Source: Bacilli bacterium (GTDB lineage Bacteria > Bacillota_I > Bacilli_A > RFN20 > CAG-826). Taken from it: 64,000 nt of DNA. The stretch is from contig JAXFZD010000018.1 in the NCBI GenBank assembly GCA_034185265.1, positions 13,388 through 77,387 on the forward strand, read 5' to 3'. A model generated the notes under the pieces. That model was given only the letters and a program-made list of their open reading frames with translations. It was not told the DNA's origin and made no database searches. The first letter of the stretch is position 1. Every line of letters starts with the position of its first letter. Positions 49,689 through 64,000 of the stretch are shown here, one piece after another. Position numbers and translations under genes: made by a program.

Positions 49689-50714
49689 TTATTTGTGCGT
49701 ATCTTTTACAAATTCCAATAATTCTTTGACTTCTTCTTCCGTTGTAACAAAAGAAGTTACAAATCTTATTGTCGTTGCTTCTTTTTCTTCGCTCCACTTC
49801 TCGCATCCATACTTGTTTATATATATAAGAGCTTCTTCTTTGGGAAGAGAAACGAAAATTTGATTAGTTGGAGATTCTAGAGTTTTGATTCCTAATTCTT
49901 TAAAACCTTGTTTAACAAGATCAGCCATCTCGTTCGAATGTTTGGCTAATTCGAAATATAATCCATCTTTAAAAGCTTCTTCAAACTCAATCCCAATTAA
50001 ATATCCTTTAGAAAGCATAGCTCCTTTATTCTTTATGTGATATCTATAGTCTTTCTGAAGATCCTTGTTTATAACAACTAAAGCTTCTCCAATCATTAAA
50101 CCGTTTTTAGCTCCTCCAACATAAAAGGCGTCGCACAAAGATGCTAATTCCTGCGGTTTAATGTCATTTTCTGCAGAAGTTAGTGCATTCCCTAATCTAG
50201 CGCCATCTATATAGAGGTATAATCCAAGTCTCTTACAAGTATCATAGAGAGCTTTTAATTCTTCTTTTTTGTAAATCGTTCCGTACTCAGTTGAATTAGA
50301 AATATAAACTACTTTGGGTTTGACCATATGTTCATCACATTGTTTATTAACCGCTTCCTCAACTTGAGCAGGTAAAATCTTTCCATTTGAATTAGTCAAA
50401 AGGAGTAATGAAAAACCGCTCCCCGAAATCGCACCAGTTTCGTGAACATTGATATGAGCACTATCAGCACATATCACTCCTTCATAGTGCCTTAAAGCAG
50501 AAGAAAGAAACACCATATTAGTCTGAGTGCCTGTAGTTAAAAAGACAACCTCAGCATCAGGAACTCCAAAAATTTCCTTAATATATTTCTTGGCCTTATC
50601 GCTATGGTAATCAAGACCATAGACTTCATTGTTTTCATAATGAAAACGACTAATTGCTTCGATAATTCTTGGGTGCGCTAGAACGCTATAATCATTTTTA
50701 AAAGATGTAGACAT
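49689..50714 (-). CDS. Low-specificity threonine aldolase family
   Basis: FKNDYS, GTQTN, HINVHETG, STEYGT, IDGARL, GGAKNG. Confidence 0.9.
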   Translation of the reverse strand: MSTSFKNDYSVLAHPRIIEAISRFHYENNEVYGLDYHSDKAKKYIKEIFGVPDAEVVFLTTGTQTNMVFLSSALRHYEGVICADSAHINVHETGAISGSGFSLLLLTNSNGKILPAQVEEAVNKQCDEHMVKPKVVYISNSTEYGTIYKKEELKALYDTCKRLGLYLYIDGARLGNALTSAENDIKPQELASLCDAFYVGGAKNGLMIGEALVVINKDLQKDYRYHIKNKGAMLSKGYLIGIEFEEAFKDGLYFELAKHSNEMADLVKQGFKELGIKTLESPTNQIFVSLPKEEALIYINKYGCEKWSEEKEATTIRFVTSFVTTEEEVKELLEFVKDTHK

Positions 50715-50788
50715 ATATACTCCTGGAATAATTTAACACCAAGAAAATAAAAATCTAGCAATTTAATTAAAAGATTATTTACATATAT

Positions 50789-51904
50789 TTATATATTAAA
50801 TAAAGATATATCAATTAGTCGTTCAGCTTCAGTCCCACCGGCATGATGCCCTTTAAAATGTTCTTTGTAAGTGAACTCTTTAGAAGCATAAATTCCGTAT
50901 TCTTTTACAGCTATAGCAAGATAATCTCCAAAAGTATCAAGAACTCCTTTAGCTGGTTCCCCTTCTCCAAAAAGCTTTAAATCTAACACTTCTTTTTTAC
51001 TTAATAATTCAAAGTAATTTCCGTAGTATTTGTTAAATAACTCCGCAAATTCCGCTTCTTTTCCTCGTTTTACGAAAAATGACGAAGCTCTTTTTTCCAT
51101 GGAAATCGCCTTATCTAATAGAGAATACAAGTCTTCATGTTCGCATATATCAAAGCGCTTATAGTTTATATGTCCATGATCTGCTAAAAATATAAATACT
51201 GTGTCAGGATTATCTTTAACAACCTTTCTTAAAAACTTCTCTGATTTATGAACTTGATAACGAGAAATACAAGAATCTATACCAAATCTATGCATTTCTC
51301 TATCAGGAGAATCCCAATAAAAATAAACAAAACAGTTATCATTTTCTTTCAAGATTTTATTTAGCTTTTTCCTTCCTTGATGAAGTAATGTTTTAGGTCC
51401 ATCGCCTGTAATAGGATATCTCATTAAATAATAAGATTTAGTAACTTTATTTTCTTCGATTAATTCACCTATTTTTCTAGTAGGAAAATATCTATCCGCA
51501 ATACTTTGTTCTCCTTCTTTAAGAAGAGATTCGTGAGTATTGTAGTCTCTACTCATAAACAAAATAACATTTTTATCATAATCTTTAAAGTATGTGTCCC
51601 AAGCAATCCAGCCCGTTTCTATGGGATATTTTCCAGTTAAGAAAGCTGTTGTGGCAGCTGCGGTTGTCGGCGGAAAAGTTGAATTTATAGTTGTTACGTA
51701 GTTCTTTCTAATAAAAGAATCTTCTTTAAGATGCATTCTTGTAATGTTTTGTCCCATTCCATCAAATAGAACGGCAACAACCTTTTTATGGCCTTTTAAT
51801 AATTTATCTACTTCAGGAATGGAATCATGAAAGGTTTCTACTCCAAAACATTTAAGTATGGAGTTAGATAGATTTACTAATGAATTTTCATTGAATGCTT
51901 TCAT
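50789..51904 (-). CDS. Alkaline-phosphatase superfamily / type I phosphodiesterase
   Basis: LFDGMG, STFPPTT, D..MH..G, ADHG, GHHAG. Confidence 0.88.
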   Translation of the reverse strand: MKAFNENSLVNLSNSILKCFGVETFHDSIPEVDKLLKGHKKVVAVLFDGMGQNITRMHLKEDSFIRKNYVTTINSTFPPTTAAATTAFLTGKYPIETGWIAWDTYFKDYDKNVILFMSRDYNTHESLLKEGEQSIADRYFPTRKIGELIEENKVTKSYYLMRYPITGDGPKTLLHQGRKKLNKILKENDNCFVYFYWDSPDREMHRFGIDSCISRYQVHKSEKFLRKVVKDNPDTVFIFLADHGHINYKRFDICEHEDLYSLLDKAISMEKRASSFFVKRGKEAEFAELFNKYYGNYFELLSKKEVLDLKLFGEGEPAKGVLDTFGDYLAIAVKEYGIYASKEFTYKEHFKGHHAGGTEAERLIDISLFNI

Positions 51905-51957
51905 ATTTTTTCTCTACTTATCAATAATTTTATTAATAAAAATTATTTTTGCCTTGT

Positions 51958-53457
51958 TTAGAATCTATAAATCTTTGAATATTTGTTATTTAGATATTCT
52001 AGGAAGGCTTTAGGTGAAAGGTCTTCTCCTGTAATTTCTTTTAACCATTCTTTTGGTGTAAGAAGATTTGCATGAATGAATACATGATTTTTTAGCCAAT
52101 CTTTAATTGCGGCAAAATTACCTTCTTCTACGTATTTATTAAATGGAATTTCTTTCTTCATGGTTTGTAAATACATTGCGTTATAACAGTTACCTAGCGA
52201 ATAAGAAGGGAAATAGCCAAATCCGCTTGACCAGTGAACATCTTGCAATACTCCTACTGAATCATTAGGAACATCTACACCTAAATATTCTTTATATAAA
52301 GAGTTCCATTTAGCGGGAATATCATCTAATTTAACTTGGTTATGACATATAAGCTTTTCGATTTCATAACGAATTATAATGTGTAAAGCATAAGTAACTT
52401 CATCAGCTTCGGTTCTAATTAAAGAAGGTTTAACTATATTTACTGCTTCATAAAGTTCTTCCTCACTTACATCAGGGAATTCTTCTTTAAAAATTTCTTT
52501 AAATTTTGGATAAATAAGATGGATGTATTCTCTACTTCTACCGATTACATTTTCATAAAATCTAGAAACAGATTCGTGCATTCCACTAGTTATGTAATCG
52601 TTAATGAAATGTTCATAATCTTCATCTCTTTCATTTTGCATAAATATCGCATGCCCACCTTCGTGAATAGTAGAGAAAATAGAAGAAACAAACTGATTTT
52701 CATAATAATGAGTTGTGACTCTAGCGTCATTTTTCGCTACATCCATAGTAAAAGGATGTTCAGTTGTAGTTAAGGCCCCTCGAGAAAAGTCATATCCGTT
52801 AAGTTCTAATAAATAACGTGAAAATGCTTCTTGCTTATGAACTGGAACATGTCTATCCAAGAAATCTTCTCTAATTACATGCTTAGAATTTTTTATCTTA
52901 TTTAGTAATTCTAATAAACCTTCTTTAAGTTCAGCAAAAAATGGATCTAAATCTTCTTGAAGCAAACCTTCTTCATGGTCATCTAGAAGAGAATCATAAT
53001 AATCATCAAATTTATTTTCTCTATAAGAAACTTCTTCCTTTTGAATAGAAATTATTTTCTTTAAGGAATCTTTAAATAAAGAGAAATCACTGCTGTTTTT
53101 AGCATCAAACCAGTCGCTATATGCCTTAGAAAAGATTGCAGATCTCTTTAAATTAAATTCAGGAGTTATATTCTTTTCTTTAAGATATTTCTTGTAAAGT
53201 TTATCAATTAAGGCCTGATCTGCAGGGTTTTTGAGTTCTTCTTTATGATTATTAAGATCTACAATGAGTTTTTTAGTTTCTTCGTTATTAAGAATTTTAA
53301 ATAGTTCATTATCGAGAAAATTTAGAACATCGCTTTCTTCTTCTCTACCTTTTTCAGGAACAATAGTTTCAAAATCAAAATAGATGATACCTAAAGCGTG
53401 TCTATATAACTTTGCTAATTTTAATGTTTCTTTAAGTTTGTTTAGTTTTTCTTCCAT
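51958..53457 (-). CDS. M32 carboxypeptidase (carboxypeptidase Taq-like)
   Basis: HPF, HEGGH, HESVS, IRTEADE, QDVHW, GYFPSY. Confidence 0.95.
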   Translation of the reverse strand: MEEKLNKLKETLKLAKLYRHALGIIYFDFETIVPEKGREEESDVLNFLDNELFKILNNEETKKLIVDLNNHKEELKNPADQALIDKLYKKYLKEKNITPEFNLKRSAIFSKAYSDWFDAKNSSDFSLFKDSLKKIISIQKEEVSYRENKFDDYYDSLLDDHEEGLLQEDLDPFFAELKEGLLELLNKIKNSKHVIREDFLDRHVPVHKQEAFSRYLLELNGYDFSRGALTTTEHPFTMDVAKNDARVTTHYYENQFVSSIFSTIHEGGHAIFMQNERDEDYEHFINDYITSGMHESVSRFYENVIGRSREYIHLIYPKFKEIFKEEFPDVSEEELYEAVNIVKPSLIRTEADEVTYALHIIIRYEIEKLICHNQVKLDDIPAKWNSLYKEYLGVDVPNDSVGVLQDVHWSSGFGYFPSYSLGNCYNAMYLQTMKKEIPFNKYVEEGNFAAIKDWLKNHVFIHANLLTPKEWLKEITGEDLSPKAFLEYLNNKYSKIYRF

Positions 53458-53731
53458 TTTCTTCTCCCTGTCTTTTTAAAGTTGATTATTCTATCACATT
53501 AAATTTATTTAGGAAGAAAAGTACGTATAAACTATCTTATATTATCTTTTATAAGAAATGTCTTTACTCCTATATTCTCTATATTCGTTTTCTACATTAG
53601 AAGCAAAAATATTATCAACTGATTCGAAGTAACTAAAAGAAGGGGCTGTTAATAAACCTATAAAAAAGTCATTAATAAAGGCTAAGACATAATCTCTACA
53701 TACTTTGTCGTTTTCTCGCCTGTTCGCAAAT

Positions 53732-53756
53732 AAAAAACCGAGATTTTACACTCGGT
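53732..53756 (-). terminator. Intrinsic terminator after peptide gene 1
   Basis: ACCGAG-attttaca-CTCGGT with an A-run; related copies near 54133, 54906, 55451 and 56022. Confidence 0.75.
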
Positions 53757-53777
53757 CATGATTAAATAATTAAAGTA

Positions 53778-54071
53778 TTAATGTGGGCAGTAATTATCTC
53801 CCCATTTGTGGCCACAACTTTTACAAGTGGATATATTGCCGTCTTTTACAACATTGTTACTACCACATTTTGGGCAATCAAACGGATTGACTTTATCGCC
53901 AATATCGGAAATAACGCTACATGCGCCTCCGCCAGCGACAACTTTTAGTTGTTCATCAGTAAGTTCAACGCCTTCTTCTTTTGCTAATGCTAAAAGTTCT
54001 TCATGATTTTTGCACTCTTTTACTTTAGCGATTTGTTCTTCAGTTAAACCTTTTAGTAATTCTTTTTCCAT
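53778..54071 (-). CDS. Nif11-like leader / zinc-ribbon peptide 1
   Basis: MEKELLKGLTEEQIAKVK...ELTDEQLKVVAGG leader; core CPKCGS...CKSCGHKW; AAGGAG RBS. Confidence 0.85.
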   Translation of the reverse strand: MEKELLKGLTEEQIAKVKECKNHEELLALAKEEGVELTDEQLKVVAGGGACSVISDIGDKVNPFDCPKCGSNNVVKDGNISTCKSCGHKWGDNYCPH

Positions 54072-54096
54072 TTTCAAGTTCTCCTTTATTAGTTAT

Positions 54097-54131
54097 ATGT
54101 TATCACAGGGTTTGTCACAAATGTGCCACAA
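54097..54131 (-). promoter_or_regulatory. Conserved promoter box, copy 1
   Basis: TTGTGGCAcatTTGTGACA, 7 bp, TGaTAACAT. Confidence 0.75.
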
Positions 54132-54210
54132 TAAACCGAGATATTTCATTCTGTTTAATTTTGTAAAGTAATTTATTTTTTTCTGATTAAAAACTTAGTT
54201 AGTGCAGATA

Positions 54211-54495
54211 TTATTTATTAACAATCCAAACAAAACCACAATCTTTACAGGTGTTATTCCACCATTCTGCAATAGAATTTTCATTATATTTGGTTTTTAT
54301 GCTGCGAGAACCGCATTTTGGGCAGATAAAAGTTGGTGTGCTTGTGCAAATTCCACCATTAACAGCTTCAAGTTGTTCTTCGGTGAGTTTAATATCTTCT
54401 TCTTTGGCTAAGTTCAATAACTCTTCTTGATTCTTACATGCTTTGACTTTAGCGATTTGTTCTTCGGTTAAACCTTTTAGTAATTCTTTTTTCAT
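54211..54495 (-). CDS. Nif11-like leader / zinc-ribbon peptide 2
   Basis: Leader ending LTEEQLEAVNGG; core CPKCGS...CKDCGFVW; AAGGAG RBS. Confidence 0.85.
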   Translation of the reverse strand: MKKELLKGLTEEQIAKVKACKNQEELLNLAKEEDIKLTEEQLEAVNGGICTSTPTFICPKCGSRSIKTKYNENSIAEWWNNTCKDCGFVWIVNK

Positions 54496-54575
54496 TTTCT
54501 AGTTCTCCTTTATTTGAAGTAATTTATTTTGTTAGATAAATCTTTTTGTACGATTCTAATACGTCCGTGTTTATA

Positions 54576-54845
54576 TTATAAAGACCACTCGTGACCACAT
54601 TGATTACATTTATAAGATGAGCAACCACTCACTTGATAAATTGGCAATTTTCTATAATCTTTTGAACCACATGCTGGACATTTAAAACTTGAGAAACATC
54701 CACCACCATTAACAGCTTCAAGTTGTTCGTCAGTAAGTTCAATACCTTCTTGTTTAACTAAGGCCAAAAATTCTTCTTGATTCTTACAAGCTTTAACTTT
54801 AGCGACTTGTTCTTTAGTTAAACCTTTTAATAGTTCCTTTTTCAT
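54576..54845 (-). CDS. Nif11-like leader / zinc-ribbon peptide 3
   Basis: Leader ending ELTDEQLEAVNGG; core CPACGS...CNQCGHEW. Confidence 0.85.
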   Translation of the reverse strand: MKKELLKGLTKEQVAKVKACKNQEEFLALVKQEGIELTDEQLEAVNGGGCFSSFKCPACGSKDYRKLPIYQVSGCSSYKCNQCGHEWSL

Positions 54846-54870
54846 ATCAAAGTTCTCCTTTGTTGGTTAT

Positions 54871-54905
54871 ATGTTATCACAGGGTTTGTCACAAATGTGC
54901 CACAA
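54871..54905 (-). promoter_or_regulatory. Conserved promoter box, copy 2 (identical to copy 1)
   Basis: TTGTGGCAcatTTGTGACA, 7 bp, TGaTAACAT. Confidence 0.75.
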
Positions 54906-54938
54906 AAAACCGAGCAATGACCGGTTATACTCGTTTGT

Positions 54939-55223
54939 TCAATTGTAATTTTCAATTTTATATCCACAGCTTTGACAGATATAATAGGTACCTTTGTCTT
55001 TAATATTATTACTACCACATCTTGGACAATCATATGGATTGATATAATCTCCAAAATCTGAAATAGCGCTACAAGCACCTCCACCACTAATGGCAGATAA
55101 TTGTTCTTCGGTTAATTCGATATCTTCTTCTTTTGCAAGTTTTAAAAGTTCTTCGTGATTTTTACATGCTTTAACTTTTGCAATTTGATCTCTGGTTAAA
55201 CCTTTTAATAATTCTTTTTTCAT
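54939..55223 (-). CDS. Nif11-like leader / zinc-ribbon peptide 4
   Basis: Start MKKELL at 55223 behind AAGGAG; leader ending ELTEEQLSAISGG; core CPRCGS...CQSCGY. Confidence 0.85.
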   Translation of the reverse strand: MKKELLKGLTRDQIAKVKACKNHEELLKLAKEEDIELTEEQLSAISGGGACSAISDFGDYINPYDCPRCGSNNIKDKGTYYICQSCGYKIENYN

Positions 55224-55246
55224 TTTCAAGTTCTCCTTTGCTAAAC

Positions 55247-55452
55247 ATATCTTATCACTATGGTTGCCACAAAAGTGCCACAAGAAAAGACCTCGTAAGA
55301 TGCCTAATCTATACTGGATAAGTCGTTTTGTCCAACTTCGGATAAGTGACTTTGGACGACGACAGTAGCTGTAGTTACACAAACTCACTTATCAAGAATT
55401 GCACAAAAGTCTCTATCCGTATTATGTCGTGATTTGATTCATTCGCGAACAA
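55247..55452. repeat. ~206-bp intergenic repeat, copy A (includes promoter box 55249-55283)
   Basis: Nearly identical to 55814-56020; promoter TTGTGGCActtTTGTGGCA, 7 bp, TGaTAAGAT. Confidence 0.9.
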
Positions 55453-55473
55453 AAACCGAGATATTTCACTCGG
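55451..55473 (-). terminator. Intrinsic terminator after peptide gene 5
   Basis: AAAAACCGAG-atatttca-CTCGG. Confidence 0.75.
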
Positions 55474-55506
55474 CTTTTCAATTGATTAAATTTAAAAATA
55501 GATAAC

Positions 55507-55791
55507 TTAGTCGGTGGATTTAATATTAAATTCTCTACCACAATCTTTGCACTTAAAGATGCTAACTTTATTACCAGAGTATTTGTTTTTAACATTAGTG
55601 CTTCCACATGATGGGCATGGCGGACAATTATCTGTGTTAGAACACGCTCCACCATTAACAGCTTCTAGTTGTTCGCTAGTGAGTTCCAAATCTTCTTGTT
55701 TAGCTAAAGCCAACAATTCTTCATGATTCTTACATGCCTTAACTTTGGCGATCTGTTCGTTAGTTAAACCTTTTAATAATTCTTTTTTCAT
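55507..55791 (-). CDS. Nif11-like leader / zinc-ribbon peptide 5
   Basis: Leader ending ELTSEQLEAVNGG; core CPPCPSCGS...CKDCGREF. Confidence 0.85.
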   Translation of the reverse strand: MKKELLKGLTNEQIAKVKACKNHEELLALAKQEDLELTSEQLEAVNGGACSNTDNCPPCPSCGSTNVKNKYSGNKVSIFKCKDCGREFNIKSTD

Positions 55792-55813
55792 GTTATGTAC
55801 TCCCTATTTATTT

Positions 55814-56020
55814 ATATCTTATCACTACGGTTGTCACAAAAGTGCCACAAGAAAAGACCTCACACGGAGGCCTCATCTATGTTGGATAAGTCGTTTTGTG
55901 CAAAACCGGATGAGTGACTTTGGACAACGGCAGTAGCTGTAGTTACACAAACTCATTTATCAAGAATTGCACAAAAGTCTCTATCCGTATTATGTCGTGT
56001 TTATAAGCATTCGCGAACAA
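55814..56020. repeat. ~207-bp intergenic repeat, copy B (includes promoter box 55816-55850)
   Basis: Nearly identical to 55247-55452; promoter TTGTGGCActtTTGTGACA, 7 bp, TGaTAAGAT. Confidence 0.9.
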
Positions 56021-56079
56021 GAAAAAACCGAACTTTTCCACTCAAAATTCATTCATCTAGCCGGGTTTTGCAGGGGTTT

Positions 56080-56598
56080 TTACAATTTTAGGTAAGCCGG
56101 CATCTCATCGCCTTCTTTGAAACTTTCCGGATATTCAACGAAACCAAAGGATGCGTAAAGGTTCTTGGCCGCTTCGTTCTCTAACTCGTAATAGAGTGTG
56201 ACATATGCCCCTGGTCCGGCAGGCTGAGAACGGAAGAATTCGAGGATTTGTTGTAATGCCTCTTTTCCATAGCCGCGTCTTTGGTGGTGGCGGTCAATCA
56301 TAAGGCGCGCAATATGGTAAGAAGACTTGATGAAGGGAATCGGATTATCCTCTAAATAGGAATCGCGATCTCCAAAATAGCAAAGCAAGGTAAAACCGAC
56401 GATCTTCTTCCCGAAATAAATAGCAAAGGGCCAAGTCGGAACATTCTCCGTGGTGTTGAGATAAGCATGGGCCAAACTAAGCGTATTGGTCGCGATGAAA
56501 TTTCTTTGTTCTTTGTTCACTTGGAGGTGGATGACCCTCCAATAGTTATCCCATGTAACCTATTCCAAATGGATTTTAGGGGTTTCTTGTGTTTTCAT
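56080..56598 (-). pseudogene. GNAT acetyltransferase (spermidine N-acetyltransferase-like) with in-frame TAG at codon 13
   Basis: MKTQETPKIHLE*VTWDNYWRVIHLQVNKEQRNF...RLMIDRHHQRRGYG...NEAAKNLYASFGF; TAG at 56562-56560; visibly GC-richer than neighbours. Confidence 0.75.
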
Positions 56599-56703
56599 GC
56601 CTTCATTATAAATAGTTTTTTAGGACTTTAACAAGAAATCAGGGTTTGAAAGCAAAAAAGCCGCCATTCCTGACGACTTCTATTCAAACTGCCAAGGACG
56701 ATC

Positions 56704-56750
56704 CGTTTTGTCCAACTGAGGAACAACGACTTCGGACTACGACAGTAACA
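56704..56750. repeat. Diverged partial copy C of the intergenic repeat
   Basis: CGTTTTGTCCAACT...GACTTCGGACTACGACAGTA aligns to CGTTTTGTCCAACT...GACTTTGGACGACGACAGTA in copy A. Confidence 0.75.
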
Positions 56751-57016
56751 GGTATTTATGGTGGATCTGAAGTGTTACGATAATAACCCGCTACCTCTTA
56801 CATTTTCAGGACAATATAACTCATTTCCCCGTTTTTATTTCAGGTTCCACTATTATTAATGTTTCAAAACACCAATTTAATGTATTGAAATGTCAAATAA
56901 TTGGCGTTTTATACTAAGTTATTAGTATATTTCTATTTTTTTGTCTCTAATTATCAATATTCAATAATAATTGCAAAAAGGGACATTAGACTTTGCTTGA
57001 CACTATCATAGAAATA

Positions 57017-57916
57017 CTATAGCGAATTATCTCCATCCAAAATACACTTCAACTCTTCTTTTACATATGCAATATCGCTATTAGATAATAATGGAATAAT
57101 CTTTTGAATTTGGTTTGCGGTTTTATTCCACCACTGCAGTTTCTCTAAAAGCTCAATCGTTTCATCATCAAATCTTTTTCTAATAACTCTTGCCGGATTG
57201 CCTACCACAACTGAATATGGAGGAATATCAGAGGCCACTACTGCATTAGCCCCAATAATACATCCGTCCCCAACATGCACACCTGGAAGGAATGTGACGT
57301 TTTGCCCAATCCAAACATCGTTGCCAATAACCGTGTCACCCTTATAAGCCAAATCTTCTTTTTTGGGGGGATCTTGTTTCCAACCATTAAATATATAAAA
57401 AGGGTAAGTAGATACCGAATTCATTTGATGATTTGCGCCGTTCATAATGAACTCTACTCCTTTGCCTATTTGGCAAAACTTGCCAATGATCAATTTATCA
57501 CCGATAAAATCATAATGATGAGTGACATGTCTTTGGAAATTCTCTCCATCAAAATAAGTATACTCACCAACGGTAATGTTTGGGTTAGCAATCACTGTTG
57601 GTTTGACATACACCACACTTTCATCACGAGATTTTAATGGGTGAATCTTTCTCCAATCTGGTTTATCGGCTTTATCCGCTTTAATCATCAATTCTTCACT
57701 TTCAGCATCTGATAAATCTAAAAATTCGTTCGCATTAACTTTGAAAATGATTATTAATTTAAGAACAATATCAAAAGATATATCGGTTTGGCCTGTCTCT
57801 ATCTTATTAATCATCGATTTATGAGTGTAACCAAGAGCCTCTGCAAATTCTTGCTGAGTCATATTGTTTTCTAAACGAATCTTTTTGATTCTATCTCCTA
57901 ATACTTTGTACGCCAT
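57017..57916 (-). CDS. XRE HTH fused to Vat/CatB-family (streptogramin A-type) O-acetyltransferase
   Basis: IKKIRLENNMTQQEFAEALGY...INKIE.G HTH; HHYDFIGDKLIIGKFCQI...NGANH...STYPF...GDTVIGNDVWIG. Confidence 0.85.
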   Translation of the reverse strand: MAYKVLGDRIKKIRLENNMTQQEFAEALGYTHKSMINKIETGQTDISFDIVLKLIIIFKVNANEFLDLSDAESEELMIKADKADKPDWRKIHPLKSRDESVVYVKPTVIANPNITVGEYTYFDGENFQRHVTHHYDFIGDKLIIGKFCQIGKGVEFIMNGANHQMNSVSTYPFYIFNGWKQDPPKKEDLAYKGDTVIGNDVWIGQNVTFLPGVHVGDGCIIGANAVVASDIPPYSVVVGNPARVIRKRFDDETIELLEKLQWWNKTANQIQKIIPLLSNSDIAYVKEELKCILDGDNSL

Positions 57917-57928
57917 AAATGTCTCCTT

Positions 57929-57979
57929 TTTAATTTGATCGAATTCGACCCCTTAAACCCATCGAAATTGACCAGTTTA
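57929..57979. repeat. Two tandem copies of the kilA-N internal palindrome
   Basis: ATCGAATTCGAC (57938-57949) and ATCGAAATTGAC (57961-57972) with TTAAA-like flanks; compare GGGTCGAATTCGACCC at 58587-58602. Confidence 0.7.
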
Positions 57980-58798
57980 CTTCTTTTCAATCCTCTTTAA
58001 TGATTTAACATTATTCTTATTGAATAATTCTTTTTCTCTATTTGCTTCTTTATTAAGAAGAACTAGTCTTTCTTGCTGAGATAGTTTTTGAGCAATTAAC
58101 ATTGAGCTCAAATACTCAAGGTTGCTAAGAATCGCTAACTCAATAGTATTTGCGTAATCTCTGATATTGCCTTCTTTATTTTGATTCATATCTCTCCACT
58201 CTTTTGCGGTTTTACCAAACAGCGCAACATTTAATAAATCTGCTTCACTAGCGTAAATAAAACTCTTTTGTACATTTGTTAATTCAACAGGAACCAAATA
58301 TTCCTTAACAGCATCAGTATGAATGAGATAATTTAACTTTGTTAATAATCTCTTACCATTCCATTCAAGTTGTTCTGATTCTTGAACTTTTAATCTTTGG
58401 AACTCCTTGATGATGTATAGTTTTACTTCTGCAGAAATCCAAGACGCAAATTCAAGAGCAATATCGTGATGGGCAAAAGTACCACCATTTTTAGTTGGTT
58501 TTGTCCTAATTCCAATTGCATTAAATTCATTAATCCACCTAGTTGGTGACATAGTAAATGAATTCTTGCCAGACTCCGCTAATAGGGGGTCGAATTCGAC
58601 CCGGTTAAAATTTGGATTATTCAGCGTTTCCCAAATTCCAAGGAACTCTAGGGATGACCTAAGTCTCATCCAGTTTTTGACAACATCTTTAGGCTCTTTT
58701 GCGTTTTTAGCTCTTGCAATATCAGTAAGACTAATATAATCATCATCCCCAATACCTGTGACATTAATATCAATATTTTTAACAGTGATTTTATTCAT
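57977..58798 (-). CDS. KilA-N domain DNA-binding protein
   Basis: DYISLTDIAR, NWMR, EFLGIWE.LNNPNF..VEFD, GGTFAH.DIALEFASWIS. Confidence 0.9.
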   Translation of the reverse strand: MNKITVKNIDINVTGIGDDDYISLTDIARAKNAKEPKDVVKNWMRLRSSLEFLGIWETLNNPNFNRVEFDPLLAESGKNSFTMSPTRWINEFNAIGIRTKPTKNGGTFAHHDIALEFASWISAEVKLYIIKEFQRLKVQESEQLEWNGKRLLTKLNYLIHTDAVKEYLVPVELTNVQKSFIYASEADLLNVALFGKTAKEWRDMNQNKEGNIRDYANTIELAILSNLEYLSSMLIAQKLSQQERLVLLNKEANREKELFNKNNVKSLKRIEKK

Positions 58799-58931
58799 AA
58801 AATGGTTCTCTTTTTATCAATCCTATTCTACCATATTTTAAAAATATATTCTACTTATGTATAAGGAAAAATCCTGATTTTTCAGGACTTCTTCTGCTTG
58901 TTTTTACTATATTTTTACCTAAATCCTTATG

Positions 58932-58985
58932 TTTTGGACTTGGGTAGCTGTAGTTGTCTAAACTCCTTTTTCCTCAGTTGTCTAA
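58932..58985. repeat. Diverged partial copy D of the intergenic repeat
   Basis: TTGGAC...GTAGCTGTAGTT....AAACTC shared with copies A and B. Confidence 0.6.
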
Positions 58986-59087
58986 TTTTCGCTTTCCTCT
59001 AAAAGCAATAAAAAAGCCACCCCGGGAAACGAACACGCTAAACATGTTTATGAAAAAGTGTGTTTTATAAATATGCCACGATTTTTT

Positions 59088-59591
59088 TCACGTTAATAAT
59101 TGTTGTAAGGAGTTAATAAATTCGTCTCCTTCTTTTCTACTAGAGAGAATGACTACGAGTTTAGCGCTTTTATATTTTTCTAAAAGCAATAAAACTCTTG
59201 GCCTTGTATTTTCGAACCAATTAATAATCCACTGTTTAAATTTTGGATCAAATACATCTTCTTTCCAAGGGATGTCTGGTCTGGACTTTCCAATTCTAGA
59301 TTCAGCACCTTCTAGACATACTTCGAGAGGGTAATCTAAGAACACTATTGTATCAGCCCTTTGCATTCTTATCTCGTATGTTCTTGAATAATCACCATCA
59401 ATTATCCATGAATCTTTAGAAAGTAGTTCGCTGAGTTTTGTATCAAACTCTTCACGAGTTATGTGTGTTCTATCTTTTTTCCAAAAAATATTATCAAGAT
59501 GGTATAAAGGCAACTTCAAAATATCTCTTAGTTTGCAAGACATACTAGATTTACCAGCACCACTTGGGCCAACTACTAGAACTTTATTCAT
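59088..59591 (-). CDS. Adenylate-kinase-like P-loop protein (FlaR-like)
   Basis: GPSGAGKS, HLDNIFW, WIIDGDY, ADTIVFLD. Confidence 0.85.
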   Translation of the reverse strand: MNKVLVVGPSGAGKSSMSCKLRDILKLPLYHLDNIFWKKDRTHITREEFDTKLSELLSKDSWIIDGDYSRTYEIRMQRADTIVFLDYPLEVCLEGAESRIGKSRPDIPWKEDVFDPKFKQWIINWFENTRPRVLLLLEKYKSAKLVVILSSRKEGDEFINSLQQLLT

Positions 59592-59905
59592 TAGAATATT
59601 TTCGTTAAAATGCTATCTTTTCTTGTGTCAATAATGTCATAAATAACAACATTATCATTTTCAACTTTGCAAAGAATTACATATCTTCCATCGTGAATAG
59701 GCATTTTCCTTACCTTAATATCTCTAATTAAAAGGCCTGGTACTTCAGGATATTTATTAAGAAAGGATGATAAGGATTTGATTGCATTTATCATTTCTTC
59801 ATAAAGGTGATTAGCGGCATCGCTAGATACATTATTCACAAACAAAACACATTCTGTGATGCTTGAATATGCTTTTTGAGTAATGATAATAGAATAATTA
59901 TTCAC
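59591..59905 (-). CDS. RelE/ParE-family toxin
   Basis: 104 aa; YSIIITQKA...IKSL...RYVIL.KV....V.IYDIIDTR; overlaps the upstream antitoxin. Confidence 0.75.
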   Translation of the reverse strand: MNNYSIIITQKAYSSITECVLFVNNVSSDAANHLYEEMINAIKSLSSFLNKYPEVPGLLIRDIKVRKMPIHDGRYVILCKVENDNVVIYDIIDTRKDSILTKIF

Positions 59906-60164
59906 GACCTAAAATCCTTTTTAAAGCAGCATCAAGTTCATCAACACTATAATATTTGGCGCCATTCTTTTGTTCTAATTCAATATCAAGAAGTCTTTCT
60001 TTTAATTCTAAAAGAGCCTGTTTCTTTTCAAAAGCCTCAATGGACATAACAACAAGATCACCTTCGCCATTTTTTGTTAAATAGATTGGTTCACCAGTGG
60101 CTTTACATTTTTCTGATATGTCGTTATATTGGTTTCTTAAAGATGTAGATGGCATAATTGTCAT
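59898..60164 (-). CDS. Phd/YefM-family antitoxin
   Basis: PSTSLRNQYNDISE.C..TGEPIYLTKNGEGDLVVMSIEAF; start at 60164 behind GGAGG. Confidence 0.88.
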   Translation of the reverse strand: MTIMPSTSLRNQYNDISEKCKATGEPIYLTKNGEGDLVVMSIEAFEKKQALLELKERLLDIELEQKNGAKYYSVDELDAALKRILGRE

Positions 60165-60185
60165 AACATATCCTCCTTGTGATAA

Positions 60186-60214
60186 TATTCTATCATAATA
60201 TTGATATGTATACA
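60186..60214 (-). promoter_or_regulatory. Promoter of the TA operon
   Basis: TTGTAT, 17-bp spacer, TAGAAT with TG extension; repeated AATATTAT boxes overlap it. Confidence 0.55.
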
Positions 60215-60228
60215 ATCAAATGTATGAG

Positions 60229-60285
60229 AAAAGGGGGTGTTCGAAAACTCATGAATGAAAAATGAGTGAAAGGACACCCCTTTTT
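60229..60285 (-). terminator. Inverted repeat/terminator downstream of the enoate-reductase gene
   Basis: AAAAGGGGGTGT...ACACCCCTTTTT. Confidence 0.6.
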
Positions 60286-60298
60286 ACTTAATCACAAT

Positions 60299-62350
60299 TC
60301 AGATTTTCATCGCTACCTCGTAGGCTCTCCAAATTACACTTCTAAGATTACCTACTTGTAAGCAGTCACCAACAAGGTAGACATTATTTCCTTTCTCCAC
60401 AAGTGGAGTAGAGATATAACCAACAGAAGAAATAACTGAATCACATTTGATTTCGTTATCTTTTCCTTCTTTATCGGTGACGATAATTGAACCATCTTTA
60501 ACTTCTTTAAGTTTGCATTCAAGATAAACAGGAACTTTCTTCCAAGCAAAATATTCTCTTAGATAGGAGGAGTTTGCTAGACAAACACCTGGTTGAGATA
60601 CTAAATCGTCTTTCATCTCAACGATGAGAGGATGTTTGCCTTGAAGTTCAAGTTCATAAGCGATTTCTGAACCAGTTAAACCACCACCGATAACTGCCAC
60701 AGCATCGCCGACTTTCTTACCATTAAGGTATTCACAAGCTTCAACCATCTTTTCTTTACCGGGGATATTTAAGATACGTGGTTTACTACCAGTTGCAACA
60801 ACAATAGGTTCACCTTTAAATTGAGCAATATCTTTAATTTCATCGTTAAACTTCACTTCAATTTGAAGCTTTTCCATTTGATAACGATACCAAGCAAGTA
60901 AATCTCTAAGTTTGCCTTTATAAGATTCACTACTGGCTGGAATAAAGATTCCGCCTAACTTATCAGTTTTTTCATGAATAATTGGATTATGTCCTCTAAG
61001 TTTTAACACTCGAGCAGCTTCCATACCGCCTATTCCACCACCGATGATATGAATGGTTTTGGCATTCTTGGTTGGAACGATTTTATGTTTGTTCCATTGC
61101 ATCATTTCAGCATTAACTGCGCATCTAGATAAATGGAGGGAATCACCTAATGATTGATCATTTGGCACACCTTTATAGTGGCACATATTGAAACAACCAT
61201 TATGGCAAAGGATACATGGTCTAATTTCTTTTTCCTCATCATTAATAACTTTAGTAAACCATTCAGGGTCTGCAAGGAAATTTCGAGCAAAACCGACACC
61301 ATCGAGTTTACCTTCTTTAATACTTTTCGCGCCTGCTTCTAATGACATTCTACCAGCACAAACAAGTGGAATATCAACATATGGTTTTAGTTTTTCAACA
61401 TATTCTAAGTTACAATTTTCAGGCATATAGATTGGTGGATGAGCCCAATACCAAGCATCATATGTGCCATTATCGCAGTTAAGCATGTCATAACCAGCTT
61501 CTTGAAGAAGCTTGGCTGCTTTGATTGATTCGTCAAAATCTCTACCAACTTCTTTATATTCTTCGCCTGGAAGAGCACCTTCTCTAAAGCCTTTAGTTTT
61601 ACTAACAACTGAATATCTTAAAGATACTGGGAAATCATCCCCACATTCTTTTTTAATTGCTTTAACGATTTCAATGGCAAAGCGATATCTATTTTCTAAT
61701 GAACCACCATATTCATCTTCACGTTTATTGACATATTTTAAAGTGAATTGGTCTAAGAGATAACCTTCATGAACAGCGTGGATTTCTACTCCATCAACAC
61801 CAGCATCTTTGCACATCTTGGCACTTTTAGCGAATGCTTGAATAAAGAATTCGATTTCTTTTTTAGTCATTTCTCTAGATGGAACTTTATCAGACCATCT
61901 ATTTGGAGATGGAGATGCAGTAGCACAAATCTTCTCAAGATTCATGAACGGTTTAGCAATGACTCTTAAAGGTTTATGAGTGTAGAGAGTTTCCATCATT
62001 TTACTGATAGTGAAACTTCTACCAAAACCTGCGGTTAATTGAATGAATAGCTTCGCTCCAGTTTTATGGAATTCAGGCATCCATTTTTTAAGGTCTTTGA
62101 ACATCTTTTTGTTCTTATATAACCATTGACCAAACATTGGGTTATAGACAGGTTGACAGCCAGGTAAGAGTAAACCACAATTATTGTTTGCGACATCCAT
62201 GATGAATTTTGCCCCATCTTTATCAAAGTGGTTAATTTCCATCCAACCGAAAAGATCGGTACCACCCATGGATGTTAAAACGATTCTATTTTTAATTTCG
62301 CAATTTCCTATTTTCCAAGGAGTAAGCAATGGTTCTAATTCTTTTCTCAT
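60299..62350 (-). CDS. NADH:flavin oxidoreductase / 2-enoate reductase family (OYE TIM barrel, Fe-S, FAD domain)
   Basis: KNRIVL, EIHAVHEGYLLDQF, EYGGSLENRYRF, CILCHNGC...CAVN, IGGGIGGMEAA. Confidence 0.9.
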   Translation of the reverse strand: MRKELEPLLTPWKIGNCEIKNRIVLTSMGGTDLFGWMEINHFDKDGAKFIMDVANNNCGLLLPGCQPVYNPMFGQWLYKNKKMFKDLKKWMPEFHKTGAKLFIQLTAGFGRSFTISKMMETLYTHKPLRVIAKPFMNLEKICATASPSPNRWSDKVPSREMTKKEIEFFIQAFAKSAKMCKDAGVDGVEIHAVHEGYLLDQFTLKYVNKREDEYGGSLENRYRFAIEIVKAIKKECGDDFPVSLRYSVVSKTKGFREGALPGEEYKEVGRDFDESIKAAKLLQEAGYDMLNCDNGTYDAWYWAHPPIYMPENCNLEYVEKLKPYVDIPLVCAGRMSLEAGAKSIKEGKLDGVGFARNFLADPEWFTKVINDEEKEIRPCILCHNGCFNMCHYKGVPNDQSLGDSLHLSRCAVNAEMMQWNKHKIVPTKNAKTIHIIGGGIGGMEAARVLKLRGHNPIIHEKTDKLGGIFIPASSESYKGKLRDLLAWYRYQMEKLQIEVKFNDEIKDIAQFKGEPIVVATGSKPRILNIPGKEKMVEACEYLNGKKVGDAVAVIGGGLTGSEIAYELELQGKHPLIVEMKDDLVSQPGVCLANSSYLREYFAWKKVPVYLECKLKEVKDGSIIVTDKEGKDNEIKCDSVISSVGYISTPLVEKGNNVYLVGDCLQVGNLRSVIWRAYEVAMKI

Positions 62351-62352
62351 AA

Positions 62353-62796
62353 CTATTCTCCAACGATGACTGTGCCATCTTCTTTAACTTCAATCTTGTC
62401 ACCAGTTTTTACAAAATCTAAGAATTCTTTTCCAAGTCTATCAATCGCGATAACTTTGGAGTCTTCCCAAATTCGTGCTAAAACAATACCTGATGCTGCA
62501 AGAGAATCAATGGATTCAGAGAATAAGAAGCAAGCAGGCGCAATACCCATTTGGCAAACAGTTTGAATAACTAATCCACCAGTTGTAGAACCAATAGTAA
62601 TTGGTAAGCAAAGTGCTTTGTTAGTGATATTAACACCAAATAAGTCTTTATTATTTTGATCGGAAACATAGACTTCTTTAGCATTCTTTAATGCGCTTTT
62701 TTGGAAGGAAGCTAGAGTATTAAAACCTTGATGAGAAACAGCGGCTTCGCCAACCCAGTTTCCCCCAGCAATAACACGGCCTTTAAATTCTTTCAT
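62353..62796 (-). CDS. Aconitase X swivel subunit (DUF126)
   Basis: FKGRVI.GG...GEA.VS, ITIGSTTGG, DSLAASG, VKTGD.IEV..DG; start at 62796. Confidence 0.85.
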   Translation of the reverse strand: MKEFKGRVIAGGNWVGEAAVSHQGFNTLASFQKSALKNAKEVYVSDQNNKDLFGVNITNKALCLPITIGSTTGGLVIQTVCQMGIAPACFLFSESIDSLAASGIVLARIWEDSKVIAIDRLGKEFLDFVKTGDKIEVKEDGTVIVGE

Positions 62797-62797
62797 T

Positions 62798-64000
62798 TTA
62801 TTTACCAGCCTTTCCGACAACAAAGTCTAAGATTTCTTGATCTTTAGCATATCTAGCACATGAATAGGTTCTAAGTTTATTGGAACTTGTATAAATCCTA
62901 CGTGCTTTCGTTAACGGATTATTCGTATACATAAGCGGACATATAGTGGTTAATTTAACACCCGTCGCCATCAATTCTTCATATTTTGGAGTTGCTTTAA
63001 ATTTATTGGCGATATCAGGAGCAGTAGTCATAATTGTTCGAACAACGACTTTCTTCTTTCCTGTTTCTTTAAGTCCTTGAACGATTCTATCTGTCCAACT
63101 ATTAAGTTGAGTAAATGTTAAATGTGGGCAACCAATAAAGACTAGATTTCCTTTCTTTTCTGGCCTTTTCCACATAATTGGATAGGAGCGATACACTCTT
63201 TCGATTTCTTCATCATCAATGACATATTCTATTGCATCTTTTAAGACAAGTTTTTCACCAAGTCTTTTTGCTTCTGGGGTTAAGCCATCGATATGGTATA
63301 AACCAACTGCACCATTAGAGGCAGTGGCAGCACCAAAGTCTTTTAAATAACCCACTACTTCATCATTAATTTCGTTACCAAGGAATTTATCTAAACCAAT
63401 AACATATGGAACATCTTCCATGACTTTCATGCCAATGGCAGATCCAAGGATTTGAGCTTCTGGTAATTTTTTACATTTAATGATAATTTTCCATTTGGCT
63501 TTTCTTCCTTCATCAGTGATAAATCCAAATTCTGGGACATATCCTAAAATAGAACCAAAAAGTTCAATCATCCCTGAATTACGATTACATCTTGCACCTA
63601 AAACTGAGTTAGCAAAAACAACCGCGCTTGATTCAGCCCAAGACAAGATGTCTCCTTCTTTTGGAGTGTTACCAATTTCAGGGAGATAGGCCGCACAAGA
63701 GAAGGCATTAGAATCTTTAAGACCAACTTTTCGCATTTGTTCTTCATACATTGCTTGTTTGGCGTACATAATTTTTGAAAACACGAGTTTCTCAAGAAGA
63801 TTACATTTCACATTTTCATAATCAATTGGTCGAGGATCGACAGTGAATTTGCCTTTTGTTGTGATGCCAGCTTGGATGAGTTGGTCCATAGTTGAAAATA
63901 ATGGTTTTAATAACTTAATACCAAAGCTAGTTACTAAATGACCATCGTCATGAGTGACTTTCACTAATCTTGGTGCACCAAAAATATCACCAAACATGAC
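62798..64000 (-). CDS. Aconitase X catalytic subunit (DUF521), 5' end beyond the window
   Basis: SCAAY...WAESSAVVFANSVLGARCNR, GAVGLYHI.G.TPEA, IGCPH, TSSNK. Confidence 0.88.
   Translation of the reverse strand, partial: VMFGDIFGAPRLVKVTHDDGHLVTSFGIKLLKPLFSTMDQLIQAGITTKGKFTVDPRPIDYENVKCNLLEKLVFSKIMYAKQAMYEEQMRKVGLKDSNAFSCAAYLPEIGNTPKEGDILSWAESSAVVFANSVLGARCNRNSGMIELFGSILGYVPEFGFITDEGRKAKWKIIIKCKKLPEAQILGSAIGMKVMEDVPYVIGLDKFLGNEINDEVVGYLKDFGAATASNGAVGLYHIDGLTPEAKRLGEKLVLKDAIEYVIDDEEIERVYRSYPIMWKRPEKKGNLVFIGCPHLTFTQLNSWTDRIVQGLKETGKKKVVVRTIMTTAPDIANKFKATPKYEELMATGVKLTTICPLMYTNNPLTKARRIYTSSNKLRTYSCARYAKDQEILDFVVGKAGK

Follow-up and report, generated by a model that had tools for sequence, protein, structure and literature searches.

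The promoters of four of the five peptide genes clustered in the window (here, the whole stretch of 64,000 nucleotides that was analysed) carry a 22-bp box of two direct repeats that recurs, with one geometry, at 17 promoters of the same assembly. We regard the box as the putative binding site of a transcription activator and infer that it defines a regulon. Most likely, it lets the only two-component regulator of the assembly switch on these 17 promoters together, and we consider it likely that the box is a class-II activator box of the SARP/PhoB type, probably serving as the output of a peptide-pheromone circuit.

All five peptide genes are genuine open reading frames on the minus strand. 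The product of gene 1 combines a Nif11-like double-glycine leader with a Cys-rich, zinc-ribbon-like core, and that of gene 5 has 823 database relatives, one of which (75% identical) is labeled 'Nif11 family protein' at NCBI. Scored against TIGR03798, the model of Nif11-like leaders, four of the five window peptides reached 16.6-20.2 bits, below the cut-off of 32.3, and the fifth gave no match at E ≤ 0.01; a paralogue on another contig (C25) passed PF07862 with 29.0 bits vs a cut-off of 23.8. The features of the array are as follows, transcription starts being predicted throughout.

53736..53757, minus strand: terminator-like hairpin after gene 1
53778..54071, minus strand: peptide gene 1, 97 aa from ATG; box begins 60 nt before the ATG
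54097..54105, minus strand: extended -10 of gene 1 (TG, one base, TAACAT); predicted start A at 54090
54110..54131, minus strand: box of gene 1, 22 bp, two 11-bp units; weight-matrix score 37.9 bits; predicted to lie at -41 to -20
54211..54495, minus strand: peptide gene 2, 94 aa, without box
54576..54845, minus strand: peptide gene 3, 89 aa; box begins 60 nt before the ATG
54871..54905, minus strand: box (54884-54905) and extended -10 (54871-54879) of gene 3; predicted start at 54864
54908..54926, minus strand: terminator-like hairpin after gene 4, its T-run abutting the gene 3 box
54939..55223, minus strand: peptide gene 4, 94 aa
55249..55283, minus strand: box (55262-55283) and extended -10 (55249-55257) of gene 4; predicted start at 55242
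55507..55791, minus strand: peptide gene 5, 94 aa
55816..55850, minus strand: box (55829-55850) and extended -10 (55816-55824) of gene 5; predicted start at 55809
55854..55874, minus strand: terminator-like hairpin directly upstream of the gene 5 box

An earlier note on this DNA had described four promoters of identical geometry before the peptide genes, with 10 bp between the repeats and the -10 and with no -35. Both the coordinates and the pattern were recovered exactly: a 35-nt pattern (two TTGTGRCA 8-mers 11 bp apart, N7, TGNTAASAT) matched the window exactly four times, on the minus strand and with 0 mismatches, at 54097-54131, 54871-54905, 55249-55283 and 55816-55850, and none of 100 dinucleotide-preserving shuffles of the window yielded a match. 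Repeat 2 ends at position 19, the TG occupies positions 27-28 and the hexamer positions 30-35, which gives the claimed gap, and direct reading of the sequence revealed no TTGACA-like hexamer 16-18 bp upstream of the -10. None of the four box promoters was listed by a scan for two-hexamer consensus promoters, which returned 7 matches in total vs 8.7 expected; its match before gene 2 (54582-54553) was set aside as being at chance level. The same applies to the one extra match (59624-59642, three mismatches) obtained in the window with the repeat-only pattern at up to three mismatches, where 1.57 matches are expected. A scan of 50000-64000 against Rfam at E ≤ 1 gave no match. The box thus delineated consists of two 11-bp direct-repeat units, the first 8-9 bases of which are conserved (TTGTGRCA, plus a C in unit 1) and the last 2-3 free. 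Unit 2 ends 7 bp before the -10 hexamer and its conserved 8-mer 10 bp before it, and the hexamer usually has TG ahead of it. With the start predicted at a conserved A seven bases past the hexamer, the box would span -41 to -20 and replace the -35.

The genome-wide motif scan proposed in the earlier note was performed on the whole assembly (1.17 Mb, 87.6% complete). Allowing at most one mismatch, the pattern matched 16 times, vs 0 matches for a reversed-pattern control. A weight matrix, built from the same 17 sites that it scored, placed these 17 boxes of one geometry at 31.0-38.4 bits and the next best match at 8.7 bits; the gene 5 site was the best box of the genome (38.4 bits). A further match with two mismatches, at position 20412 of contig C10, had no -10 at the right place and was rejected as chance. 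In the alignment of the 17 sites, positions 1-19 are nearly invariant and C22, T27, G28, T30, A31, A34, T35 and A42 are also conserved, while most of the downstream positions and the 40 nt before the site hold about zero information. The units are 11 bp apart in all 17 sites, and 16 of these have the -10 hexamer beginning at position 30, the other at position 29; TG is found at positions 27-28 in 14 sites, the remaining three having a perfect TATAAT. Wherever a box precedes a peptide gene it begins 59-61 nt before the ATG (10/10), and 7 of the 17 boxes serve unrelated, non-peptide secreted or surface proteins with dissimilar flanks. The invariance of the box, its uninformative flanks and the seven sites at unrelated genes indicate a footprint rather than shared ancestry. 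Recent tandem duplication of peptide cassettes might by itself have made the four window copies alike, leaving the box with no function: genes 1 and 3 have promoters that agree in all 35 nt and beyond, and genes 4 and 5 have about 190 nt of upstream sequence in common at 85% identity. Between the two pairs (1/3 vs 4/5), however, conservation is limited to the repeats, the -10 and the ribosome-binding site; the seven further boxes stand at non-homologous genes, and the box is also present in other genomes, as detailed below. The repeats are indeed far more conserved than their flanks in this genome and in its relatives alike, contrary to the refuting outcome that the earlier note had named. The site alignment, the genome scan and the survey of 58 genomes already refute duplication as the sole explanation, and we give it next to no credence.

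As had been claimed, gene 2 is without a box, none being found before 54211-54495. The accompanying proposal that it rides on the transcript of gene 3 is upheld in part. The spacer between the two genes harbors no terminator-like hairpin, contig C25 holds a second two-gene unit behind a single box, and one RNA-library contig, covering 54505-54806, crosses the spacer and lends weak support; gene 2 probably shares a transcript with gene 3. Small shares of the region are present in nine bovine-gut and gut metatranscriptome runs. RNA contigs cover peptide-coding parts, for instance 53783-53933 and 53728-53892, with no differences from the sequence; since the four runs examined consist of assembled contigs, 5' ends are not readable from them. 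The bin 54105-54185, upstream of the predicted gene 1 start, had no cover in these four runs, an observation that we do not count as evidence.

The expectation that the motif could be used to find the missing machinery was borne out on another contig, C9, where two boxes flank a locus encoding a radical-SAM/SPASM enzyme, a C39-peptidase ABC exporter pair, a multi-pass histidine kinase and a response regulator, together with STAS and PP2C-kinase partner-switching genes. The response regulator is the only receiver-domain match in the whole assembly, and its stop codon lies 2 nt from a box. It is a protein of 253 aa in which a receiver domain (PF00072, 85.4 bits) precedes a SARP-like winged helix and a stub of a SARP activation domain. 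Its phospho-acceptor site (D53, T81 and K101) shows no variation among 20 homologues, its receiver scores best against those of the LytR/BtsR type, and its partner kinase is of the LytS type (PF06580). The family of its DNA-binding domain has one copy in the assembly. In public data, the regulator family comprises 2047 clusters (50% identity, E ≤ 0.001), and a 79%-identical homologue is named 'two-component SAPR family response regulator' at JGI. A winged-helix activator encoded elsewhere had been postulated, and the C9 regulator, with its OmpR-type winged helix and AfsR and EmbR as best structural matches, answers to that description.

The assignment of the DNA-binding domain relies on homologue matches, a profile search and the predicted fold. 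The C-terminal half of the regulator matched no Pfam family at E ≤ 10, BTAD included, and PF00486 (Trans_reg_C) found no match in the assembly; PF00486 was matched by 8 of 12 family members (homologues about 40-45% identical), with a best E-value of 3.2e-7. Searched singly against the PDB with phmmer, the C-terminal half retrieved AfsR and EmbR only, at non-significant E-values of 0.15-0.9, and a profile search placed AfsR first (E = 0.0043) and EmbR next (E = 0.005), both marginal. A model of the isolated domain (pLDDT 94.6) yielded six Foldseek matches at E ≤ 0.001, all of them AfsR or EmbR chains aligned over 144-151 columns, vs about 84 columns and E ≥ 0.008 for plain OmpR/PhoB domains. 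The full-length AlphaFold model, mediocre in its C-terminal half (mean pLDDT 72.9, tail below 50) and used for the overall OmpR-like match only, best matched OmpR/PhoB-family regulators such as DrrB, PhoP, PrrA and VanR. As judged from sequence and modeled fold, the C-terminal domain is a SARP-like winged helix of the OmpR type. Past the winged helix, the domain model shows only about 40 residues forming two short helices, the full BTA domain being absent; in Foldseek, the alignment with AfsR chains of 249-254 residues breaks off after 144-151 columns. With so few residues after the winged helix, the polymerase contacts that AfsR makes via its full activation domain cannot be assumed here.

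The box and the regulator also travel together across the genus. Among 58 genus genomes, which are related and thus non-independent samples, a regulator orthologue was detected in 16, the box in 17, both in 14 and neither in 39. With at most one mismatch, the box recurs in 16 genus genomes other than the present one, and the reversed-pattern control gave 0 matches in all 58; a match in genome G028 was dropped as chance. The two regulator-only genomes have two-mismatch boxes beside the regulator gene, and the three box-only genomes, in which no regulator orthologue was detected, are 74-86% complete. In five genomes (G000, G007, G058, G067 and G057), the regulator gene is closely followed by a box. 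Although TANNNT formed no part of the pattern used to search the relatives, it starts at position 30 in 12 of their 21 sites and at position 29 in 4 of them. What connects the regulator to the box is association, and another regulator could be missing from an assembly that is 87.6% complete.

According to PMC10936776, SARP sites consist of direct repeats with a spacing of 11 or 22 bp, in each of which the first 8 bp are contacted and the last 3 not, and the 22-bp afs box spans -40 to -19. On that account, the present box resembles the SARP boxes (the afs box of AfsR and the targets of ActII-ORF4 and DnrI) in its 11-bp direct repeats, in a 22-bp extent overlapping the -35 region, and in having about 8 conserved bases in each repeat ahead of 3 free ones; its predicted position is -41 to -20, vs -40 to -19 for the afs box. 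The distance quoted for SARPs to the -10 is 8 bp, whereas the conserved 8-mer here ends 10 bp away. The proteins differ as well: SARPs, which activate transcription when bound to their boxes as dimers, are actinomycete proteins with a full helical activation domain, whereas the present candidate comes from an uncultured rumen bacterium of the Bacilli and is a response regulator with a phospho-acceptor site, about 40 residues after the winged helix and no Pfam BTAD match; SARP targets are antibiotic pathway genes, whereas those here are exported peptides and surface proteins. Also alike are the pho box and other class-II sites of the OmpR/PhoB family, where a response regulator binds direct repeats that follow each other at a spacing of one helical turn and stand in for the -35 some 10 bp above the -10; WalR and CiaR provide further examples of such sites. 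The repeat sequence of the pho box is nonetheless different, and the present regulator departs from that family in its LytR/BtsR-like receiver, its LytS-type kinase and a DNA-binding domain closer to SARPs than to PhoB. Gram-positive peptide-pheromone regulons include Agr, ComDE and BlpRH, with LytTR regulators, and the lantibiotic autoinduction systems NisRK and SpaRK. The circuit proposed here would share their logic, in that an exported, processed peptide would signal through a multi-pass kinase to a response regulator, and the regulator would drive the pheromone operon along with double-glycine-leader peptides using one C39-ABC exporter. It differs in that the candidate pheromone needs a radical-SAM/SPASM enzyme. 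LytTR-regulated promoters have 9-bp repeats with a period of about 21 bp, in contrast to 11 bp here, and a search of the assembly with PF04397 (LytTR) gave no match; LytTR proteins were rejected as readers of the box. A literature search found no paper on receiver-SARP regulators, their sites or the box regulon.

Among the alternatives to activation by the C9 regulator, the one to which we give most weight, while still holding it improbable, is that the box is an operator, from which the same regulator or another protein bound over -41 to -20 would repress promoters that are self-sufficient. Extended -10 promoters can function without a -35, so that the present promoters, with TG at positions 27-28 in 14 of 17 sites and a perfect TATAAT in the other three, might be active alone, and the box occupies a region that polymerase must take. 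Yet the spacing between box and -10 does not vary by a single base pair in 16 of 17 sites, and relatives preserve it, as a face-specific contact with polymerase would require; steric blocking would not need it. The geometry further agrees with that of published activator boxes, and AfsR and EmbR, the closest folds, as well as PhoB-type regulators, activate from this position. Somewhat less probable still is that another protein reads the box, be it a regulator missing from the incomplete assembly or an HTH_3 (XRE-type) protein. In favor, three genomes have boxes but no detected regulator orthologue, and HTH_3 genes adjoin two of the peptide arrays, the candidates being the following.

57017..57916 of the window: HTH_3 gene
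contig C25: HTH_3 gene of 290 aa

XRE-type proteins, however, usually bind inverted repeats, unlike the direct repeats of 11-bp period seen here, and the response regulator adjoins a box in five genomes and co-occurs with the box in 14 of the 16 genomes that bear it; the incompleteness of the three box-only genomes also counts against a second reader. We deem it very unlikely that an alternative sigma factor, either the ECF-type sigma of contig C16 or sigma-54, recognizes these promoters. The presence of that second, ECF-type sigma gene, the partner-switching genes within the C9 locus, and the sigma-54-like TGGCAC that repeat 1 forms in 11 of 17 sites speak for it. Against it, a canonical, housekeeping-type TG-n-TAnnAT lies at a fixed distance downstream, and two identical direct repeats differ from a -35/-10 pair. 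For sigma-54 in particular, whose promoters have an invariant GG at -24 and GC at -12, no DNA-binding domain scored above cut-off in the 87.6%-complete assembly (best, 12.2 bits); 6 of 17 sites have GA for GG in repeat 1, and most show AC where the -12 GC would be; ECF sigma genes usually drive themselves, whereas contig C16 is without a box. Both were rejected as box readers.

Under the preferred reading, activation through a class-II box, the binder would be the C9 response regulator, the only one of the assembly. Once phosphorylated, two copies would bind head to tail, one per repeat, on the same face of the DNA, and would bring in the housekeeping RNA polymerase at a promoter which the polymerase reads poorly by itself; such recruitment has already been shown for PhoB and for the SARP AfsR. 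The input would probably be a small radical-SAM-modified peptide that the box-driven operon next to the regulator produces and exports; the neighboring multi-pass histidine kinase would sense it, resulting in positive feedback. The outputs would comprise 12 exported peptides with one common leader, five of them in the window, and seven operons for secreted or surface proteins. More tentatively, and with rather less than even confidence, we propose that these parts form a novel Gram-positive quorum-sensing circuit consisting of a radical-SAM one-cysteine peptide, an NHLM-type C39-ABC pair, a LytS-type kinase, a receiver-plus-mini-SARP regulator and the box output, in which the regulator would fire an arsenal of zinc-ribbon-like secreted peptides and surface proteins.

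The box offers a DNA target with which a large family of response regulators (about 2000 clusters, no studied member) can be tested, and an orphan peptide array becomes part of a defined regulon of 17 promoters for which sensor, regulator, maturase and exporter can be named. The 22-bp box and its regulator could be moved to a laboratory host so as to switch on and study the peptides, and the same transfer could test SARP-like activation with almost no activation domain. If the quorum-sensing reading is true, it would represent SARP-style 'sigma adaptation' outside actinomycetes, achieved with a mere stub of an activation domain and controlled by phosphorylation. Since this is apparently the only two-component system in very small rumen genomes, the functions that it controls are likely to be central to dealing with neighbors.

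A 35-nt pattern, comprising a 22-bp box of two 11-bp direct-repeat units (TTGTGRCA core) upstream of a -10 hexamer, had been noted with identical geometry ahead of four of the five small double-glycine-leader (Nif11-like) peptide genes of the window. Pattern search of the window returned the four copies exactly, without a mismatch (54097-54131, 54871-54905, 55249-55283 and 55816-55850), and no match in 100 shuffles of it; when the repeat part alone was searched with up to three mismatches, the one extra match was distant and at chance level. The peptide genes are as follows.

53778-54071, minus strand, peptide gene 1
54211-54495, minus strand, peptide gene 2, without a box
54576-54845, minus strand, peptide gene 3
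54939-55223, minus strand, peptide gene 4
55507-55791, minus strand, peptide gene 5

In line with the earlier note, pattern searches of the window found no box for gene 2, and direct reading showed nothing resembling a -35 hexamer at 16-18 bp above the -10; none of the four box promoters was among the matches of a two-hexamer consensus promoter scan. No terminator-like hairpin was found between genes 2 and 3, the spacer of which is crossed by a metatranscriptome contig (54505-54806). This contig is one of a set assembled from bovine-gut metatranscriptomes (four runs, three studies) that covers the peptide genes but does not resolve starts, strand or level. Gene 2 is probably carried on the gene 3 transcript, as had been proposed, with a parallel in a two-gene unit on contig C25 of the same assembly, where a second precursor also directly follows a box-bearing one and has no box of its own.

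Since genes 1 and 3 have identical promoters and ~190 nt of upstream sequence is common to genes 4 and 5, the window alone would leave room for duplication as the source of the likeness; between the two pairs, conservation is confined to the repeats, the -10 and the ribosome-binding site. That the four copies are alike merely by duplication was rejected on the strength of the genome-wide sites. Across the assembly (1.17 Mb, 44 contigs, 32.5% G+C, 87.6% complete), the repeat pattern yielded 16 matches with at most one mismatch, against 0 for a reversed control, and 18 with at most two, the -10 standing at the same place in 17 of these 18. A 22-bp weight matrix scored 17 sites at 31.0-38.4 bits and the next-best genome position at 8.7, a score gap rather than an independent test, the matrix being trained on those same 17 sites. 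Counted from the first base of repeat 1, positions 1-19 of the 17 aligned sites are nearly invariant, and the 40 nt upstream hold almost no information, so that the repeats are indeed more conserved than their flanks, one of the points on which the earlier reading hung. Further conserved positions are C22, T27, G28, T30, A31, A34, T35 and A42.

A leader-pattern scan of the genome revealed 12 precursor genes with one common leader, 10 of them with the box starting 59-61 nt ahead of the ATG. Ten of the 12 cores are Cys-rich and zinc-ribbon-like, and two, at G000:C9:44428 and G000:C25:26695 (both on the minus strand), are short: the double glycine is followed by 15-16 residues that include a single Cys and a basic tail. 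Only the C9 copy of these two candidate pheromones adjoins a radical-SAM enzyme. The remaining seven boxes stand ahead of genes for other proteins, listed here.

three paralogous secreted proteins, 466-495 aa
a surface protein, 1066 aa
an operon of a lipase-like protein and a lipoprotein
an S41-peptidase-like lipoprotein
a 397-aa protein of unknown family

The genome-wide motif scan, suggested earlier as a route to the missing machinery, led to contig C9, where two boxes lie within a single locus and a third at its end (elements in minus-strand order).

1, histidine kinase, PF06580 core, ~six membrane segments
2, response regulator, 253 aa
3, box, then the 397-aa protein
4, box, then a short precursor
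5, radical-SAM/SPASM enzyme
6, small HlyD-like fragment
7, C39-peptidase ABC exporter (TIGR03796, 836 bits, just below the cut-off of 853) and its partner ABC protein (TIGR03797)
8, STAS and PP2C-kinase genes, transporter
9, third box, ahead of the 1066-aa surface protein

Inside the exporter operon, a STAS protein and a PP2C-phosphatase/GHKL-kinase fusion (L018:8856-11011) form a partner-switching set. The assembly holds only two sigma factors, one housekeeping and one ECF.

The stop codon of the regulator gene and a box are 2 nt apart. The regulator is the sole receiver-domain match in the assembly, and its DNA-binding domain family is likewise single-copy. Pfam recognised the receiver domain alone, the C-terminal half being without a match; a 79%-identical homologue is named 'two-component SAPR family response regulator' by JGI. 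The C-terminal domain family comprises 2047 clusters at E<=0.001, with a Trans_reg_C match in 8 of 12 members tested. A PDB profile search placed AfsR (E 0.0043) and EmbR (E 0.005) on top, followed by OmpR/PhoB domains. With the domain model (pLDDT 94.6), Foldseek returned only six chains at E<=0.001, all AfsR or EmbR with 144-151 columns aligned, classical OmpR/PhoB domains aligning over ~84 columns at E>=0.008. Judging from the model, the regulator is a receiver fused to a 'mini-SARP' rather than to a full SARP, because only ~40 residues extend beyond the wing. The winged-helix activator of PhoB/OmpR or SARP type, predicted earlier to be encoded elsewhere, probably has its counterpart on C9 in a protein whose DNA-binding domain is closest in fold to AfsR/EmbR and whose binding to the box is predicted. 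No publication on receiver-SARP regulators, on the sites they bind or on this regulon came up in literature searches.

Among 58 genomes of the genus, which are related to one another so that counts overstate independence, a regulator orthologue (at least 63% identity) occurs in 16, the box (at most one mismatch) in 17, both in 14 and neither in 39; the reversed pattern had no match in any of the 58. The two regulator-only genomes carry two-mismatch boxes beside the regulator gene, and completeness is 74-86% for the three genomes that have only the box. In five genomes (G000, the assembly studied, G007, G058, G067 and G057), the regulator gene is closely followed by a box. Seven relatives contributed 21 sites; TANNNT, a motif outside the pattern searched for, begins at position 30 of 12 of these and at position 29 of 4 others. 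Same-leader peptides follow the box at 7 of the 23 sites listed in relatives. G007 (C5, C10) and G065 (C6, C12) each have two regulator copies, 65-70% identical to that of G000, and one repeat carries TTGTTGCA in several of their boxes; these boxes and the second copies may represent a diverging regulator-site pair.

The surroundings of the arrays hold further elements. A ~190-nt non-coding repeat on the minus strand (55284-55480, 55852-56040 and ~56640-56760) lies upstream of the boxes of genes 4 and 5, with 85% identity between copies; its central 70 nt are hairpin-rich, closing with a terminator-like hairpin that abuts the box. It gave seven blastn matches in the genome (five on the window's contig, one on C3, one on C25) and no Rfam match, and may represent either the gene of a small RNA or the boundary of a cassette. 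A 299-aa fusion of HTH_3 (XRE-type) and hexapeptide acetyltransferase is encoded upstream of the array (57017-57916, minus strand), and on C25 a peptide gene is followed by one for a 290-aa protein (L019:15247-16119) that has an HTH_3 domain and a weak hydrolase-like match in its C-terminal part. GNAT acetyltransferase genes beside the arrays (window 56080-56520; C25 L019:13087-13566 and L019:4023-4829) may serve peptide modification or immunity. A KilA-N protein and a ParE/Phd toxin-antitoxin pair adjoin the window array (57977-58798, 59591-60215), and a YoeB/Phd pair and an IS3-type transposase occur among the C25 cassettes (L019:12486-13060, L019:7026-8413). The peptide arrays seem to lie in accessory, possibly mobile, DNA.

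As other readers of the box, sigma-54 and a LytTR regulator are unlikely, none having been found in the assembly, as is the ECF-type second sigma factor, near whose gene there is no box. The box might instead be an operator through which promoters carrying a TG-extended -10 are repressed; such a -10 is present at 14 of the 17 sites, but the fixed spacing between box and -10 argues for activation rather than simple repression, and we consider an operator improbable. With a start assumed at the conserved A42, the box would span -41 to -20. A published account of SARPs (PMC10936776) describes targets whose direct repeats are spaced at 11 or 22 bp, the 3' one standing 8 bp away from the -10, a 22-bp afs box at -40 to -19, protomers touching the first 8 bp of their repeat but not the last 3, and a dimer engaging sigma region 4. 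Because the layout here matches that described there to within 1-2 bp, we favor, with reasonable confidence, an activator site of class II, at which the regulator, driven by phosphorylation, would dimerize head to tail on the two repeats and activate transcription.
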